Assembly (NCBI GenBank): GCA_038890745.1
Contig: JAWAFD010000002.1
Coordinates: 183,130-247,129, forward strand
Length of the DNA stretch: 64,000 nt
Direction of reading: 5' to 3'
DNA from: Candidatus Anstonellales archaeon
GTDB taxonomy: Archaea > Micrarchaeota > Micrarchaeia > Anstonellales > J096
In this document: in pieces, positions 20,801 through 45,259 of the stretch
How the letters are laid out: each line of letters starts with the position of its first letter
How positions within the stretch are numbered: the first letter of the stretch is position 1
The notes under the pieces: generated by a model
Databases searched by the model: none
What the model was told of the DNA's origin: nothing
The model's input: the letters and a program-made list of their open reading frames with translations, nothing else
Position numbers and translations under genes: made by a program

Positions 20801-23701
20801 GTGCATAATATAACTACAGACAATATAGTTAGAGATACGGTTCTTGATTCTTCTGACAAATATATATATTATTATGTCAGGAATGTGACTGGGGACGGTT
20901 TGTATGATACTACAGAGCCAATACCTACAAATGTTGGTTTTATTGGAGTTGTTAACTCATCAGATTTCTTAGTTGAAAATGTTTCCCTGCACAATAACTC
21001 CCATGGGTTGTTATCTGTTCTTGCTAACAATGTAACTGCAAATAATGCTACATTTTACTATGAATACATAGGAGCATATCTGCTTTATTCAAGTAACCAT
21101 AATATAACGAACTTAAATTCTTCTTCTAATGGTGCAGGTGGATTTAGATTATACTATTCGGATAAAAATAATATAACGGATTCAGAGATAAAAAATAATG
21201 GCTTGTTTGGCGTTGATTTAAGATACACAAACAATACAATAGTCGAAAACAATCAGATTCACAATAATTCGTACTACGGTTTTAGAGGTTATGCTTCTTC
21301 CTATAGTAATAAAATTATTAACAATACGATAGGGTCGTTCCATAATATCAGCATTTATCTAAACAATGCGCCCTATACACTTATAGAGAACAATACAATT
21401 TATGAAAGTAACATTGATGGAATACATCTATTCATGAACTCTAATTGCAACATAATCAACAATTCCATTACTTCAAACACACAATATGGTGTTAGCATCC
21501 ATTACCAGTCTTCTAATAATACAATACTCTACAATACTATAACAAATAATGGCTACTCAGGACTCTACATCTTGATATCTGTAAACAACACTATTGCAGG
21601 TAATACTATTTCTGACAACACCCAAAATGGAATATATTTATTTGGGTATGCCAATGAAAACAATATAACAAACAATACTATCTCGGACAACTTTTTCAAT
21701 GGAATAAGGATAGAAGCTGGGTGTAGCAACAACCTCATCTACAACAACATCCTCAACAATACCTATAATACATATGACGATGGCACTAACTATTGGAACT
21801 ATTCCTACTGCCCAGGCGGGCCTAACATAATCGGTGGACAATGCATAGGTGGAAACTACTATTCTGATTATGATGGGATAGATGATGGAAGCGGCTCCCC
21901 ACCCATTCATAATATTGCAGGAGATGGAATAGGAGATAATCCGGACCAGTATGCGATAGGTGGAGGAAGCAACATTGATTACATGCCTTTGACAAATAAC
22001 CAACTAGGAATGAATTGCATGTATATAAATTCAAACACAAGCCTTCTTGCGAACTTGGTTGGAAACAAATCAGATAGGGCGTGCATTACGTTTAATGCTT
22101 CAAATATCTACTTAAACTGCTCCGGTTATAATATCACAGGAAATGTCTATGATCCTGAAAACAAAACATACGCAATAATGACAAACGGATTTGAAAACAT
22201 AAGCATAATAAACTGCCCAAACCTAACCAACTATTCTTTTGGAATATATGTTAATGGTACAAAAAATGCAACGATAAATAATGTAACCTCTTACAAAAAT
22301 ACCGATAGCGGGATAGGAATAGTAGACAACAGCAGCCAGATAGAAATATCAAATACAACCCTTCCTTTCAACACGGAAAATGGAATATTCATAAACTCCT
22401 CTTCCCAAGTGAACGTTTACTCAACAGAGATATACAACAATCCCTACTCAACCCTATTCAATGTAGGGATATACTCTCTAAACTCTTCCAGAATTTTAAT
22501 CTCAAATGCTTCAATATACAACCATAGCACCTATGGAATTTTGGCTTACGACACGTCACATATCAGCATTTCTGACTCCTACTCGATATTCAACCAAATT
22601 GCAGGAATGTATCTTAATGCAGGGAATAACCTTACGATGCAAAACAGCAACTTCTCAAACAATACAATATACGGTATAAGACTTAATGCTTTCGAAAACA
22701 TTACAGGAAACAATATCACAATACACGGAACCAGAGGGGATGAGGCATTTTTAGCAGACTATTCCTACAATGCAACCATCTCAAACTCTTCAATAAGCTT
22801 TAACTATCTTAACGCTATACGATTATTCACTTCTGCAAATTTCACATTCAATAATATCACAGCAAACAATAATACAAGAGGGATCTACATAAACGACTAT
22901 ACAAACGGAACAAGAATACTTAACTCTAACATAAGCTTCAACAGTGATAAAGGAGTGTTTTTCACACAAACAACAGATAATAATAGAATGGAAAACAGCT
23001 ATATTTGCTTCAATACCCAAAAGGATATAGATAATCAGGACGGAACAGATAACAACGGCTCATTGAACACATGCGACACATACTATCAGTGGAAGGATGA
23101 TGAACTGCCAGATGGATGCGCCATGACATGCACTTCTATATGGCATTATTTCTATGGAAATATTACTGGTTTGATTTTGCTTGGAACAAACTGGACAGAG
23201 CCAAAATTCATGTCCAACTGGACTCCTGCAATAGTGCACATGTATGTATTCCCAGAAGGAAATACAATAAGCTGGTTGGAACTTCAGGCATTAGGAAGAA
23301 AGGCAGATAATACAACAGCAAGCAATGATTTTGAAGAGGCGGACATAGCTTTGGGAATAGACCCTGCATTAGTGGATAGCATAAACAAAACATTCAGCAT
23401 AGATGGAACACTTCCAATAGAGAACACGACATATAGGGTATGGGGTAGGGATATTGCAAACATTTCCATCGCAAACTCAACGGATAACAAGAATTTCAAG
23501 ACAGGTATTTTGTGGGACACGAGCGATGGGGGAACAGAATTTACTTCTGCAGAGCATCAGGATTTGGTGTTTATGACAAATATTACATGGGACGGAGAAG
23601 GAAAATGGGGAACATATGATTATGAAATAAGAGTGCCTTCCCAGTTTGCCACCTATAATGGAGGAGCAGGTAGGGTTATAATTTATCTAGAGGTTCAATA
23701 A
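11837..23701 (+). CDS. Giant (~3950 aa) secreted multi-module beta-helix adhesin/surface glycoprotein
   Basis: Signal peptide, acidic NITEN linker, repeated LY(S/K)C...C...(WE) domains, successive beta-helix modules closed by GTNYWN...CIGGNFYS...GDGIGD...DYLPL caps, and the shared C-terminal domain. Confidence 0.85.
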   Translation: MNKKTAVALLVAIALVFALTSEYSISIDRSEYYVGEAVNITVTMPLKVYAVKLYITLPSNETEETPAIRCRTGLCLYQYFPDQPGHYIVGLFDRNISVEFDVLRNENETAPPLINITPTLPRLSYYDERTNLTFFYYLIPTEEGYGDLIIENITPHLPALVLNNFSLNSSLFIHAYELNISENQTILKIKNYSQNISENISTEATNITENLTENITENTSEEIALEITETKNTTEENFSEIINENNTGLNETENITENLTEIESETEIRNLYNVIFVNLSGTNFSYAEYYILLEYDTLLSCVNFTNETCALWEKANSTQDGIFAILNSTSDFLVAGQLNISYPLDISENISLNVSEENISEINITPLEDEVYKQLEIVFIDMGFDYYEDFWTYDSVEEEVQELLIQNAFFVVYDEKGEGRIPEYIISMVDEKHANVGIFKPIQSVPVITFYSLYLDKELKMSAYDINDSAFVLDTYYLFYPYGIVYAEKKGEYLYSCEDFSYDYTCRTGFKELNYTLQKGKAVFNITKEQKLFLWTEKPLTIPGGEQNATELLPSININISDTRGKQKNYTYEILEYTGRYASVTFYFSPEERIHSITLYNLSLSGEPFILLDEFSNSILLVDLSNSDFDYSVVIAKDYGGDLYKCKEFDKNYSCSGGWEKWPYFASGGYIVFKLLPEDPLFIQTINLSTVTTLNIIDPFGNPVNGSYEILDNSTGLDVQINFNSGQVLQLTIYDIPDDGYSHTIVVGDTFVNDSENNMTNTFVIDLSNISYNYSNVVARNSGGDLYKCSTFSSNFSCLSSWELYPYTNNGVNRSFNLTEGDPMFGYEKEGNISIFDITSCTAITTSGYHTLDNNLVGNTSNSIGGYYYCIAIRVSNVELNCQNYEIRGNSAGSTVGIIIYDPPLAINPLTNVTVRNCNVLNYSRNLMIDSALTTDHSQITIRDSRFNLSSGNSIRVEDCDDSNFTNLVVDRTSDGGILFLTDSTNNRVVNFTGYNSANFFIMDYSGSNNFTNITLRNGGWAGIWIRGVDNSIVDGFDIQNITESGGVVYGGIYVSSGGDNNIIRNGKIYDLVTYGIQVNGSYNNTITNVTIYNSTSESGIFIYEDTADNNKIYNSTIYRNADYGIYVNGADDLLIYNTNIENHTSGYEVYLYAPSSLVSVSNILIQNSRFVNNKSINTMGINAIYGSNITVDNSTFTGIYIGAYFNQSNTITIKNSTFLRNGKAGIFFDSTTSSSVLDNDINDTYWTSDDPGGIYLGFCDWNSVNFYKFEGGIILCYSNYTQISYNYLKGNGTCTDNCIANHNGCEAGIFTYNSKLNNITYNIFRNSGDNYDSLYFYSYDTNYWYNDQNGTDPLTGNNNVNDGIKLDNSRGFNISHSNFSNNREWGIFLTNSNDTYIYNNTASYNTNVGIRLASSANNTVIYNTAFKNQQGFRVEQLEAINNIFKDNTAYSNSYYGFYLYFSSNNTLSNNTAYSNSYYGFYLYFSSNNNTLSNNTAYSNSYYGFCLYFSSNNNILSNNTAYNNNIYGIYLYQNADNNTIVNNTIYNNSIYQLLINETYPSYDNKIYNNIFNASAGQGVVYDSGTNYWNTSYDCTGTNIIGGDCIGGNFYSNYTGADDGSGATYPHNIAGDGIGDNPDDYYIYGGSNIDYLPLTNLRTACFYADTSNTVYTLTRNLYGNKSDRICITINASNITIDCNGYNITGTYPYTGYTIGIGNYDSRNNVTIKNCYITNYTFGIYANLSNQYNITNNSLVANGKAGIFFDSTENSTIWDNDINDTYWTSDDPGGDYFQFCNWSAGNFSRFEGGIILCSSNYTQISYNYLKGNGTCGGGGPGCGSNHNGCEAGIFTYNSKLNNVTHNTFRNSGDNYDSLYFYSYDTNYWYNDQNGTDPLTGNKNVNDGIKLDHSRGFNISHSNFSNNYEWGIFFTWSNDSYIYNNTARYCVGSGGVGIRLARSANNTVIYNTAFKNQEGFRVDYSEAINNILKDNTAYNNSWYGFHLSSSSNNTLSNNTAYSNSYYGFHLYFSSNNTLSNNTAYNNNIYGIYLYQNADNNTIVNNTIYNNSIYQLLINETYPSYDNKIYNNIFNASAGQGVVYDSGTNYWNISYDCTGTNIIGGDCIGGNFYSNYTGVDDGSGATYPHNIYGDGIGDNPDDYYIYGGSNVDYLPLTNNQTLCFYADTSNTVYTLTRNLYGNKSDGNCITIVDWTTNITIDCNGYNITGWGVGKGIFSAYSSHNTIKNCNIRNYTYAMDLRVGQNISVFNNNITNNTNGIALIVDIKHSRLYNNYFYDNTGSSFYMVYGCDNVSFYNNTIEKSGGWAISLRDTTTNSRIENNTIFNGDNVGIGLYPSDTLNNTIKGNSIYNQGSYGIYLSSGTNNNTISDNIVYNTTNYQIAISSSSDNLIYNNIFNASAGQGVVYDSGTNYWNISYDCTGTNIIGGDCIGGNFYSNYTGVDDGSGATYPHNIYGDGIGDNPPNYSIYGGSNWDYLPLTNNITYARCFYANISNTVYTLSGNLYGNKSDRICITINASNITIDCNGYNITGNHSLTENTIGIGSYVGWENVTIQGCHVSNYTYGVYAYSFNNTLIDELNSIRNHFGIYLNQTTNSNITNSKIEVYNETAWSRGIYLVNSSGIRISSSHINRTGLTSAPWAIGIMPCATNDTIIESSNFTDRLTRSIFVSICREVDGTEFQAPTYNLTIKDNHFWNTETVIALWVNYNTSIINNTIEYYRGYGIVSGYLGLPGEYWDLLIENNTIRNATNCLDDPSYSGHMTGIYIDTNSGGWTVRGNRIEYMPTLGIDLDGVGGYSYDMLFENNVFNHTGENDYGAGCNPTPNMGGVYFGGIENSTVQNNIVENFGSSIGINFWWRENQNVLVQNNTVFNGNATGIGGSGTQNNITVRNNTVSFARAGIGFSSTSNSAFYNNTVHDNTKEGIAISNGYNNTLQDNLAYANMYGISLNNVVNHTLLNNNMTNNRYNFYIEGSSVPHFVHNITTDNIVRDTVLDSSDKYIYYYVRNVTGDGLYDTTEPIPTNVGFIGVVNSSDFLVENVSLHNNSHGLLSVLANNVTANNATFYYEYIGAYLLYSSNHNITNLNSSSNGAGGFRLYYSDKNNITDSEIKNNGLFGVDLRYTNNTIVENNQIHNNSYYGFRGYASSYSNKIINNTIGSFHNISIYLNNAPYTLIENNTIYESNIDGIHLFMNSNCNIINNSITSNTQYGVSIHYQSSNNTILYNTITNNGYSGLYILISVNNTIAGNTISDNTQNGIYLFGYANENNITNNTISDNFFNGIRIEAGCSNNLIYNNILNNTYNTYDDGTNYWNYSYCPGGPNIIGGQCIGGNYYSDYDGIDDGSGSPPIHNIAGDGIGDNPDQYAIGGGSNIDYMPLTNNQLGMNCMYINSNTSLLANLVGNKSDRACITFNASNIYLNCSGYNITGNVYDPENKTYAIMTNGFENISIINCPNLTNYSFGIYVNGTKNATINNVTSYKNTDSGIGIVDNSSQIEISNTTLPFNTENGIFINSSSQVNVYSTEIYNNPYSTLFNVGIYSLNSSRILISNASIYNHSTYGILAYDTSHISISDSYSIFNQIAGMYLNAGNNLTMQNSNFSNNTIYGIRLNAFENITGNNITIHGTRGDEAFLADYSYNATISNSSISFNYLNAIRLFTSANFTFNNITANNNTRGIYINDYTNGTRILNSNISFNSDKGVFFTQTTDNNRMENSYICFNTQKDIDNQDGTDNNGSLNTCDTYYQWKDDELPDGCAMTCTSIWHYFYGNITGLILLGTNWTEPKFMSNWTPAIVHMYVFPEGNTISWLELQALGRKADNTTASNDFEEADIALGIDPALVDSINKTFSIDGTLPIENTTYRVWGRDIANISIANSTDNKNFKTGILWDTSDGGTEFTSAEHQDLVFMTNITWDGEGKWGTYDYEIRVPSQFATYNGGAGRVIIYLEVQ
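15500..18500 (+). repeat. Tandem ~1.5-1.6 kb intragenic module duplication
   Basis: 15500-~16950 versus 17102-~18500, with long identical tracts such as 16382-16604 = 17927-18149. Confidence 0.9.
16177..16400 (+). repeat. Three tandem 66-69 bp beta-helix rung repeats (NTAYSNSYYGFYLYFSSNNTLS)
   Basis: Directly visible. The sister module has only two such rungs (~17800-17940). Confidence 0.85.
19046..19257 (+). repeat. Third copy of the module-cap coding sequence
   Basis: Identical to ~18080-18292 and near-identical to ~16535-16747. Confidence 0.85.
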
Positions 23702-42827: not shown

Positions 42828-43286
42828 ATGGATGTTATAAAAAGAGATGGTAGGATTGAAAAGTTTTCTAAAGAAAAGATGGTAAGGGCGATAGTAAATG
42901 CTGGTGCAAAATTAAACGATGCTAAAGCTATTGCGGATAGGGCAGAAAAGGAATTCGGCAAGCGTGAAAAAATTAGTTCTTCCGAGCTCAGAAGATTTGT
43001 GATCTCAGAACTAGAAAAACTTGAGAAGGATATCGCTAAAAGATTTGCCGAGTTTGTAAAAGTAAAGAGAGAGATTGCTAAGACGGAGGAGTTTGACAAA
43101 AAACTCGTTGCACTTTGCGGTGAGAGCGGAGTGGTTAGACATGTTTATGGTGGGTATGAGATAGAGATCAATGATGAGATAGTTTTTGATTATTCAGCCG
43201 TATTTCTCGAACTCATAAGGATTAGAAAGATGAAAGTTTCCATCGAAGAGAGGGATGGAAAGATCGTCATCATTGCTCGACCATAG
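42828..43286 (+). CDS. ATP-cone domain protein
   Basis: VIKRDGRIEKFSKEKMVRAI...ISSSELRRFVISELE. Confidence 0.75.
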   Translation: MDVIKRDGRIEKFSKEKMVRAIVNAGAKLNDAKAIADRAEKEFGKREKISSSELRRFVISELEKLEKDIAKRFAEFVKVKREIAKTEEFDKKLVALCGESGVVRHVYGGYEIEINDEIVFDYSAVFLELIRIRKMKVSIEERDGKIVIIARP

Positions 43287-44520
43287 TTTTCAGTTTTTTT
43301 ATACATTCATTCAGGCTAGAAAACTCCTCCTTCCCGCTCTCCATGCTACGCAGTGTTATCTTTCCTTCTTTCTTTTCCTTCTCCCCAACAATCGCAACAT
43401 ATGGGATCTTAAGCGCATTCGCGTACTCAAACTGTTTTCTCAGATTCCTATCGTTCAAATCGACTTCTGTACATATTCCAGCTTTTCTTAATTCTTCTGC
43501 AATCTTCAAGGCATAGGGATAAAACTCCGGTTTAACATTTGCAACAAAAATTTTTGTTGTTGTTTCACGTGCGTTTTCTTCACCCCTTTTGTTTATTAAA
43601 TATATCAACCTCTCAATCCCAAAACTTATCCCCGTTGCATACTCCCCGCTTCCGTACAAACCAATCAATCCATCATACCTTCCGCCAGCAGCAACGCTTC
43701 CTATCTCCTCGCTCAGCTTCACCTCAAATATCGGCCCTGTGTAGTACGCAAGTCCCCTCACCAAAAACAGATCAACCTCTGCTTTTGGGAAATATGTTAA
43801 AATCTCCTCCAATTCCCTTGCCCCTTCTTCACTATACCTCGCCGCAAATTCAAGTTTTTCCCTATTCTTTCCCCCAACCTTTAAACTTTCTAATATCTCC
43901 TCAGTTTTTTTCATCCCAACTTTTCCTTCGAGCTCTTTCCTCACACCATTCTCTCCTATTTTGTCTATTTTATCCAAGCTTCTGAAAACATCCTCTCTCT
44001 TTTTTTCATCTATCCCCCAACTTTCAGCCAATCCATTTAGGATTTTCCTGTTGTTTAGAAGGAATTTTGCATTCTTCAATTCAAACCCCAGCCCTTTCAG
44101 TACATCGTAGGTTAAGTTTAGAAGCTCCCCTTCTGCCCGCATGCTTTTTGTCCCGACAATGTCTGCATCAGCCTGCATGAATTCTCTGTACCTTCCTTTC
44201 TGAGCCTCCTCATTTCTCCACACCTTTGCGATCGCATACCTCTTAAACGGTTTTGGAATCTCAAGATTGCTCGCAACGAACCTTGCAAGCGGAACGGTTA
44301 AGTCAAACCTTAATCCTATCTCCTCACCCTTTATTCTGAAAATCTGCTGCTTTATCTCTTCGCCGCTTTTTGCGGTAAGCACATCCAAAAATTCCATGGC
44401 TGGCGTATCCAGGGGTCTGAACCCGTATAGCTTGAATTTCTCCTCTATTTTCTCCACTACCCATTCTCGTATGAGCATTTCCTTTGGGCCAAAATCCCGC
44501 ATTCCTGTTGGTGTTTTCAT
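43270..44520 (-). CDS. hisS: Histidine--tRNA ligase
   Basis: PTGMRDF, LRFDLTVPLAR, GRYREFMQAD, RGLAYYTG, AGGRYD, GIERL and an anticodon-binding domain. Confidence 0.97.
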   Translation of the reverse strand: MKTPTGMRDFGPKEMLIREWVVEKIEEKFKLYGFRPLDTPAMEFLDVLTAKSGEEIKQQIFRIKGEEIGLRFDLTVPLARFVASNLEIPKPFKRYAIAKVWRNEEAQKGRYREFMQADADIVGTKSMRAEGELLNLTYDVLKGLGFELKNAKFLLNNRKILNGLAESWGIDEKKREDVFRSLDKIDKIGENGVRKELEGKVGMKKTEEILESLKVGGKNREKLEFAARYSEEGARELEEILTYFPKAEVDLFLVRGLAYYTGPIFEVKLSEEIGSVAAGGRYDGLIGLYGSGEYATGISFGIERLIYLINKRGEENARETTTKIFVANVKPEFYPYALKIAEELRKAGICTEVDLNDRNLRKQFEYANALKIPYVAIVGEKEKKEGKITLRSMESGKEEFSSLNECIKKLKTMVEQ

Positions 44521-44524
44521 GGGT

Positions 44525-44560
44525 TTATTCTTTCTTAAAATATGCTTTAAACCTATCGGT
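44525..44560 (-). pseudogene. Displaced duplicate of the last 12 codons of scpB (TDRFKAYFKKE*)
   Basis: 31/36 nt identical to 44792-44827 (TDKFKAYFKKE*); ends 4 bp before the hisS ATG. Confidence 0.85.
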
Positions 44561-44619
44561 AGAGGAACCAGGGGAACCTACGGTTCCCCCATTTCCTTCT
44601 AATCTCCCACCCCCTCCCT
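44561..44619. repeat. 59-bp direct repeat, copy 1, with GGGGAAC-CTACG-GTTCCCC hairpin
   Basis: Identical to 44687-44745. Confidence 0.95.
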
Positions 44620-44641
44620 TGAAACAGAAAATAAAATTTAT

Positions 44642-44686
44642 CGCCAGGGAGGAGATTTGAACTCCTAAGCCCTTACGGGCACCAGA
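44642..44686 (-). tRNA. 3' half only of a long-variable-arm tRNA, most likely tRNA-Ser
   Basis: Minus strand reads TCTGG (anticodon stem 3' side), GCCC-GTAA-GGGC variable arm, AGGAG-TTCAAAT-CTCCT T-arm, CCCTGGC acceptor strand and G73. No 5' half or anticodon is adjacent. Confidence 0.8.
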
Positions 44687-44745
44687 AGAGGAACCAGGGG
44701 AACCTACGGTTCCCCCATTTCCTTCTAATCTCCCACCCCCTCCCT
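44687..44745. repeat. 59-bp direct repeat, copy 2
   Basis: Identical to 44561-44619; abuts the tRNA half exactly. Confidence 0.95.
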
Positions 44746-44791
44746 AATTTTGTATAAATTAGTAGACGAAATATCATCGTTAAGAAGCGCT

Positions 44792-45259
44792 CTACTCTTT
44801 CTTAAAATATGCTTTGAACTTGTCGGTTAAATAAAGTTTTTTGCTCCTTCCTGCCTTCACCTGCTTCACAAACCCTTTTTCTGTTATCTCTTTTATGTAT
44901 TCATACATCTGCGTTCCGAGCACTTTCACAACTTCGCTCTTTAAAATTCCATCATGATTTGCAATATACGCGAGCACTTTCAGGGCACCTTTGCTTAGCT
45001 CTGTTTCTTTTGCAAACTCTTTTACAAAAGGCAGATATTCCTCCCTTACGCGCATTATGTACTTTCCGGCAATCTCCTTTATTTCAATCGCACTTCCCTT
45101 CTGTCTGTACTCCTCGCTAAGCTCATTTATTAGATTTATTATATATCCCGGTGCATCTATGCCTGTGATTTTTTTCAACTCCTCGGGTGCGATCTCCCGG
45201 GAGGACATAAAAAGGGCAGCCTCTATTACCCTTTTTTTGTCCAGATCTTGCTCACTCAT
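44792..45259 (-). CDS. scpB: SMC-Scp complex subunit ScpB
   Basis: IEAALFMS, LSKGALKVLAYIA and GRSKKLYLTDKF. Confidence 0.92.
   Translation of the reverse strand: MSEQDLDKKRVIEAALFMSSREIAPEELKKITGIDAPGYIINLINELSEEYRQKGSAIEIKEIAGKYIMRVREEYLPFVKEFAKETELSKGALKVLAYIANHDGILKSEVVKVLGTQMYEYIKEITEKGFVKQVKAGRSKKLYLTDKFKAYFKKE

Follow-up and report, generated by a model that had tools for sequence, protein, structure and literature searches.

The analysed DNA, called the window here, is the whole stretch of 64,000 nucleotides. On its minus strand scpB is followed by hisS, and a repeat of 59 nt, named R in the following, lies twice between the two genes. The identities of scpA, scpB and hisS were confirmed with Pfam, and all three genes are whole. 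The layout of the junction, read by an earlier note from the letters, was confirmed: the scpB end is followed by a spacer, R, the 3' half of a tRNA-Ser with its trailer, R, a second scpB end, 4 nt and the ATG of hisS. In the order of reading the features are:

44792..45259, minus strand: scpB, 155 aa, intact (PF04079, E 5.6e-33)
44792..44827, minus strand: in-frame scpB 3' end TDKFKAYFKKE plus stop, 36 nt, probably the incoming (replacement) copy
44746..44791, minus strand: unique spacer of 46 nt, likely the trailer that came along with the replacement scpB end
44687..44745, minus strand: R, spacer-side copy, 59 nt, purine-rich arm and imperfect hairpin
44641..44686, minus strand: tRNA-Ser(TGA) 3' half, 46 nt, variable arm unlike that of the resident gene
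44620..44640, minus strand: T-rich trailer, 21 nt, identical to the trailer behind tRNA-Ser on contig C3
44561..44619, minus strand: R, second copy, 59/59 identical to the first, its 3' end abutting the displaced scpB end
44525..44560, minus strand: displaced scpB 3' end TDRFKAYFKKE plus stop, probably the original end, with a likely role as hisS promoter
44546..44551, minus strand: TTTAAA, TATA-like hexamer with putative promoter function, 25 nt before the hisS ATG
43270..44520, minus strand: hisS, 416 aa, intact, ATG at 44520

The identity of the two 59-bp repeats and the 5/36 differences between the two scpB ends, four silent including the stop and one K/R exchange, had also been given exactly. 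The two 36-mers agree at 31/36 positions, and the next-best ungapped match in the 0.99-Mb genome reaches 25/36. Under random decay, at least four silent differences out of five have a probability of 0.002-0.015. The tRNA-Ser half starts 1 nt past the 3' splice site of the intron, with the splice position read from the gene on C3 and in the same-genus genome G001. A donor of the spacer 44746-44791 was sought in 19 genomes of the family and none was found.

R consists of a purine-rich arm and an imperfect hairpin, which reaches the 3' end of the repeat. The hairpin core, GGGGAACC-GTA-GGTTCCCC, is subterminal, about 10 nt from this end. As single-stranded DNA R folds better than its shuffled versions (z -3.57), as RNA not clearly so (z -1.11). 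It is asymmetric, has no inverted arms at the unit ends and carries no gene. An Rfam search with R gave nothing near the gathering score.

The genome (G000; 989,524 bases in five contigs, 93.8% complete) contains five copies of R, two at scpB–hisS, two on C3 and one on C4, four of them identical. In this search with the 59-mer, which had been proposed as a check, R turned out to be dispersed and gene-less, with fragments of gene ends adjoining its 3' end. Both orientations relative to the target genes occur. The pair on C3 stands behind an intact, intron-containing tRNA-Ser(TGA), the cognate gene that the earlier note had looked for, and this gene is followed by the same array of R and tRNA half. 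The order is gene, trailer, R, 3' half, trailer, R and finally the last 9 nt; the array adjoins an assembly gap and the locus has no scpB module. The array of R and half behind tRNA-Ser(TGA) is present in G001 as well. In G002, another member of the genus, an R homologue with shorter loop was observed behind tRNA-Ser (L271; G002:C4, ~22760-22830). It abuts the stop codon of a convergent gene of 570 aa, which is absent there in G000. The copy on C4 has two changes and lies antisense in the anticodon intron of tRNA-Trp. This tRNA-Trp (G000:C4:58110-58680) has a long, cassette-filled T-loop intron, and its anticodon intron is mostly antisense R. The anticodon intron of tRNA-Trp has another sequence in G002, and the tRNA-Trp of G004 has short introns only.

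The tRNA-Ser half of the window and the gene on C3 have the trailer and the T-arm in common, but differ in the variable arm, with a GTAA loop in the window and CTTGT on C3. In G000 the GTAA type is found nowhere outside the window, and the tRNA-Ser genes of G001 and G002 have a variable arm like that on C3. A GCAA loop occurs in 4/18 other genomes of the family. The half in the window is a non-resident allele; its loop, of the GNAA type, is similar to the loops seen in other genera of the family.

About 20 further loci of G000, nearly all tRNA genes as judged by eye, contain related hairpin cassettes, which form either T-loop introns or arrays on the downstream side. A further module at a foreign locus, comparable to that in the window, was found in G000. 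It consists of the last 25 nt of tRNA-Ala(CGC), of which three copies stand behind that gene on C1 and one is part of an array behind tRNA-Ala(GGC) on C2; the C2 copy has a locus-specific flanking base and lies near the contig end. In these regions (G000:C1:179294-179794, C2:313720-314089) the tRNA-Ala(CGC) 3' ends alternate with another hairpin cassette. At G000:C1:142135-142283 a segment of ~26 nt, belonging to the 5' region of a purL-like gene (so named by eye), recurs ~120 nt upstream. This duplicate lies at the edge of a cassette array and is possibly a decayed replacement of a 5' end. Two further repetitive regions were noticed: a long array with a period of ~75 nt and units ~69% alike (G000:C3:30880-35520), and tandem 105-nt coding repeats spanning an assembly gap at the end of the window (G000:C2:246729-247692).

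The distribution of R was examined in the order, in the phylum and in viral and metagenomic data. With up to two mismatches the hairpin core was detected in 11/176 genomes of the order, G000 included, and the reversed core used as control matched none of the 176. A phylum-wide pattern was too strict and matched 4/401 genomes. The exact core, mostly after the same purine arm, is present in at least 129 viral stretches (~210 estimated), which by name and gene content are largely giant-virus contigs. Furthermore, it was found in 80 stretches of GTDB genomes from Micrarchaeota, Methanomicrobiales, Thermoleophilia, Peribacteria and others. The form of R seen in G000 and G001 was found neither in JGI metagenome contigs nor in viral contigs. 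On the giant-virus contigs L137, L134, L118 and L097 the same core lies in tandem units, with duplications starting just after the hairpin; the units of L137 also hold tRNA fragments.

For the detection of duplications, the 60 nt after the hairpin were sought in the 400 nt before it (score of at least 26, sequence duplicates removed). A duplication flanks R in 23/40 copies from Micrarchaeota and Altiarchaeota vs 3/143 control positions; the 40 copies include five from G000 and several per genome, which overstates their independence. The other 17 copies are without duplication, as are most giant-virus and bacterial copies. The values were 21/195 (control 26/536) for viral and 4/52 (control 12/186) for bacterial R-type copies, and 0/5 (control 1/21) for Methanomicrobiales. 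Inspected by eye, the 23 duplications comprise nine tRNA ends, three ends of protein genes, ten other cassettes and one trivial tandem match. In nearly all of them the duplication begins within a few bases of the 3' end of R, and the spacer on the 5' side varies. The length is variable (~18-70 nt), and the copies are exact, as in several family members (46/46 at L186, 18/18 at L030), or diverged. At L033 the 5' end of a protein gene is doubled, and three of four differences are silent (P 0.04-0.05). In the spacers of L033 and L191 the TATA-like box is unlike the native one, and the displaced gene fragment is near-identical. In our reading of these sequences, an imported end with its own flank would fit this pattern better than neutral decay.

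R is a dispersed, gene-less hairpin repeat and likely a mobile element, which carries gene ends and leaves the entered genes intact. The simplest reading of the fixed 3' end, the variable 5' flank resembling gene ends, the tandem arrays and the foreign modules is that of units made up of gene end, trailer and R, which insert by homology and are exchanged between copies of R. We give this model an even chance of being correct. On release, the 3' end of R would be one boundary of the unit, and homology would direct the unit back into the matching gene or into another R. On entry at the matching gene, the gene would stay whole and its old end would be stranded behind R. In the window, a 141-bp scpB unit would have entered scpB, probably first, and a 126-bp tRNA-Ser unit would have followed, probably later, by a crossover of R with R. 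The reaction may take place at the 3' end of R, through cutting or joining by an enzyme that comes from outside the element. The intermediate may be circular or single-stranded, and the non-resident alleles may have been imported from related lineages. The model is supported by the duplication at the 3' end of R throughout the family, the empty site in G001, the tRNA-Ser arrays and the second foreign module. The mostly silent differences between the two scpB ends are also counted in its favour. Against it we count that an enzyme, a circle junction and a donor of the spacer were not found in the searches reported here, that 17/40 archaeal copies have no duplication, and that G002 has the duplicated scpB end but no R. 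The exact haplotype of the window, seen in none of the five sequencing runs described below, is counted on the same side.

The scpB–hisS junction was compared between relatives, since a different explanation could be that the duplication is old and arose in place. In G001 the junction is uninterrupted, as had been asked for: a single scpB end stands 4 nt before the hisS ATG, as the displaced copy does in G000. L015 of another family has the same tight junction. In G002 the scpB end is duplicated without R, and a different in-frame end is followed by a short spacer and the displaced copy. L265 has the same sequence there as G002. In L264 the scpB end is different again, and the intergenic region is separate. 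Neither the in-frame end nor the trailer is alike in any two of G000, G002 and L264. The displaced copies of G002 and G000 are 32/33 identical; members of the genus are ~78-80% identical in the compared genes. A hexamer TTTAAA/TTTTAA is situated 24-25 nt upstream of the hisS ATG in G000, G001, G002 and L264. It lies within the displaced copy; the in-frame copies have lost it (TTCAAA in G000). At the K/R position of ScpB, K is usual in the relatives compared, and G001 and the displaced copies have Arg.

Judged from these sequences, the displaced scpB end is likely to be kept as the hisS promoter, holding the TATA box. Such a role explains the persistence of the fragment, and the silent differences could then also have arisen in place. 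According to the explanation by an old duplication, R inserted once in the ancestor of the genus with a long target duplication and no allele was imported. The upstream copy would have stayed coding and drifted silently, the downstream copy would have been frozen as promoter, and gene conversion would have kept the R copies identical; G002 would have lost R and G001 would have collapsed back to one scpB end. The duplication without R in G002, with a displaced copy 32/33 identical at ~78% genome identity, is explained equally well in this way. The intact hexamer of the displaced copies with its constant spacing, the usual K at the position where G001 and the displaced copies have Arg, and the exact duplications elsewhere in the family point in the same direction. 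In contrast, R differs clearly between the species of the genus, yet four of the five copies in G000 are identical, and G000, G002 and L264 each have an in-frame end and a trailer of their own. The non-resident tRNA-Ser allele and the promoter-like spacers of L033 and L191 would also be left unexplained. Bootstrap values of 61 and 89 give the genus tree weak support, and it does not decide between the readings. We consider the old duplication in place unlikely. For the earlier note the comparison has two sides. It had named relatives with the duplicated scpB end but without the repeats as evidence against an inserted element; G002 has this form, and the other sister, G001, is uninterrupted. 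It had further called the end in scpB recoded; divergence in place, with the displaced copy as hisS promoter, can explain this too.

Five DNA runs from two studies (X1-X5) contain the locus, all as contigs; among the sequencing runs listed, none with the locus was an RNA dataset. The insertion in scpB is real and common to several strains, and the tRNA-Ser module varies between them. No contig of the five runs bridges the complete form with two R copies, and the exact haplotype of the window was seen in none of them. In X5, from the other study, a contig of 192 nt with depth 2 joins scpB, the spacer, R and 8 nt of the displaced end, a form with a single R; with 8 nt below the bridging rule it is suggestive only. 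X4, a strain ~1.5% divergent, shows R with four flanks: the scpB side, the hisS side and both sides of tRNA-Trp. No tRNA-Ser module is listed for X4, and its contigs fit a single R at scpB. In X2 and X3 the flanks are identical to the window, and the CTTGT module is the only one listed, without a GTAA module. X1 has the GTAA module as one piece of 137 nt with R at both sides and one trailer base different from the window. The depth of the R contigs is ~2.4-4.5x that of the flanks, which gives no sign of strong amplification, depth not being copy number. A circle or joint junction was not listed in the five runs, and contigs drop rare forms. The single-R contig of X5 and the contigs of X4 without the tRNA-Ser module are counted in favour of the tRNA-Ser unit as the later entrant, and the order proposed above, scpB unit first and tRNA-Ser unit second, appears probable.

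These data also bear on the question whether the tRNA-Ser module is an assembly chimera. An array variant from a mixed population would then have been routed via R into a real scpB insertion. This would agree with the missing contig across the two-R form, with the single R of X5 and the contigs of X4 that fit one, with the lack of a listed GTAA module in X2 and X3 despite flanks identical to the window, and with the assembly gap beside the C3 array. Counted against it is the length of R: 59 nt are shorter than common short reads. Moreover, the module of the window is not a copy of the assembled C3 module, from which it differs in the variable arm, and in X1 the GTAA module is bounded by R on both sides within the piece of 137 nt. 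The second foreign module, tRNA-Ala(CGC), has its locus-specific flanking base, though it lies near a contig end. On this evidence a chimera is decidedly unlikely.

Enzymes that might mobilise R were sought by profile searches in G000, G001, G002, G167 and G308, with G000–G002 82-94% complete. No match over the cut-off was obtained for tyrosine recombinases (PF00589) in G000, G001 and G002; among the five genomes two were found, both in G167. In the genus, represented by G000–G002, the search gave no match even for an XerA-like gene. Resolvases (PF00239, serine recombinases) gave no match over the cut-off in G000, G001 and G002, nor in G167 and G308. For the Y1 transposase (PF01797) 0/5 genomes matched, vs 6/14 of the control set. 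Reverse transcriptase (RVT_1, PF00078) was detected in 0/5 of these R-bearing genomes; one might be supplied by a host or virus. IS110 had no match in the five genomes. Nothing over the cut-off was found for the Y2 HUH transposase (PF04986) in the five genomes, the control set being likewise without match, and the Rep_1 search was uninformative, since its control set matched nowhere. GIY-YIG (PF01541) gave nothing over the cut-off in G000 and none among the recurring neighbours of R. A TnpB-like gene was present in G002 only, with short, weak matches in the other searched genomes. The search for DUF559 in G000 gave one weak match, away from R. This DUF559-like (PD-(D/E)xK-type) protein has 246 aa and an HTH (G000:C3:15358-16095, L308:1135-1872) and is not beside any R.

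The neighbourhood of R was also surveyed, the earlier note having suggested an integrase, transposase or reverse transcriptase next to other copies; no mobilising gene recurs beside R. The clustering of 876 ORFs at a distance of up to 700 nt from R-type copies gave, on inspection by eye, nothing beyond spurious frames and conserved genes of giant viruses or of housekeeping type. Pfam identified no transposase or recombinase among 50 ORFs near cassette loci, i.e. 49 of 157 listed, chosen by eye as unrecognised, and the DUF559 match.

A retro-type insertion was considered as well, in which an RNA ending in R, read-through or processed, was reverse transcribed into a nicked target. It would leave the 3' end constant, the 5' end variable and the duplication without a set length, and all three are seen; the tRNA-Ser module also begins 1 nt from the 3' splice site of the intron. 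The same single base stands against a spliced start. Furthermore, the five R-bearing genomes have no RVT_1 match, R occurs in both orientations relative to the target genes, and it folds well as DNA but not clearly as RNA. We regard this origin as very improbable. Least probable of all, and hardly to be expected, is the proposal of the earlier note, a 267-bp circle with two attP-like sites, brought into scpB or tRNA-Ser by a site-specific recombinase acting in trans: such a circle can be drawn from the anatomy, and integrase-bearing islands do restore gene ends according to the available sections of PMC4482086 and PMC3293823, but G000, G001 and G002 gave no match for a tyrosine or serine recombinase, the many unrelated targets with duplications of 18-70 nt have no common core, the tRNA-Ser locus is without scpB module, and the single-R forms indicated in other strains, with R joined directly to the displaced end in X5, make a dual-target circle of 267 bp probably not the unit.

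Going beyond the units inserting by homology, R might be the recognition arm of a homology-guided integration system common to DPANN archaea, some bacteria and giant viruses, a wider proposal which we put forward as a rather unlikely one. An enzyme would join the 3' end of R to a site matching the 20-70 nt carried beside R. The captured flank would reprogram the target, modules for unrelated essential genes would be interchangeable, and the window would be a natural product with two modules. Targeting by the carried flank, if it takes the place of a fixed att site, would make the enzyme a new type of programmable integrase. The hairpin core of 18-19 nt, common to giant viruses and scattered bacteria, points to a mobile recogniser.

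Several known systems can be compared with R. MITEs have terminal inverted repeats and a short target duplication of fixed length. Unlike these, R is asymmetric, has no inverted arms at the unit ends and is accompanied by duplications of varying length. It differs from SINE-like retroelements by the lack of an RVT_1 match in the five R-bearing genomes. For IS200/IS605 and REP/RAYT no target duplication is expected, and R has one in the 23/40 archaeal cases. The subterminal ssDNA hairpin of the IS200/IS605 type is present in R, but no Y1 gene was found with it. Ssn nucleases pair with oriented NTS/SRM hairpin repeats (PMC11893778). As far as the available sections of this paper go, R resembles Ssn/SRM, and likewise REP/RAYT and IS200/IS605, in being a short, dispersed hairpin that is patchy across taxa and has a conserved flank in a set orientation; these sections do not describe a duplication of gene ends for SRM repeats. 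Unlike Ssn/SRM, R is without a single-domain GIY-YIG gene flanked by hairpins.

In the model for ISCR1, as given in the accessible part of PMC7707992, circles originate at one fixed end, return through homologous recombination and produce tandem copies. R likewise has one fixed end and a variable captured flank, and the circle, homologous re-entry and tandem copies proposed for ISCR1/IS91-like elements follow the same logic as the model of units inserting by homology. In contrast to these elements, the R units are gene-less with 80-200 bp, and the captured DNA is a gene end; no Y2 was found over the cut-off, in the R-bearing genomes and the control set alike. The dusA islands (PMC4482086) and the SSV1/pNOB8-type elements in archaeal tRNAs (PMC3293823) are driven by integrases and restore the gene end, according to the available text of both papers. 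In the same way the target gene of R stays whole and a displaced direct repeat of the gene end, with copies that may be imperfect, flanks the insertion. Compared with the islands as described there, R has a constant part of ~60 nt, no cargo, no fixed att core and no integrase that was found. Its targets are many unrelated tRNA and protein genes, at 5' and 3' ends and in both orientations, and its modules exchange between loci.

Transposed archaeal tRNA introns and scattered tRNA fragments have been reported (PMC3293823; bioRxiv 10.64898/2026.10.13.758758). In line with the available parts of these sources, R makes up the greater part of the tRNA-Trp anticodon intron, T-loop introns are filled by sister cassettes, and a piece of a tRNA is found here at a remote locus. 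Unlike the introns described there, R is also located at the end of a protein gene, where splicing cannot hide an insertion. The route by which tRNA introns arrive is still open in Asgard archaea, as stated in the accessible text of 10.64898/2026.10.13.758758, and the R family offers a concrete DNA substrate for testing their arrival in archaea. No paper describing the R element was found in the literature searched, whose coverage excluded supplements and most subscription journals. R combines parts of integrase islands, ISCR1 and Ssn/SRM, but lacks in our searches the enzymes by which these are defined. To these systems the locus adds a nested foreign module, the variation of this module between strains and the remodelling, more than once within a genus, of the same protein-gene end. 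In a single genome, one repeat of 59 nt links the gain of tRNA introns, the scattering of tRNA fragments and the replacement of protein-gene ends.
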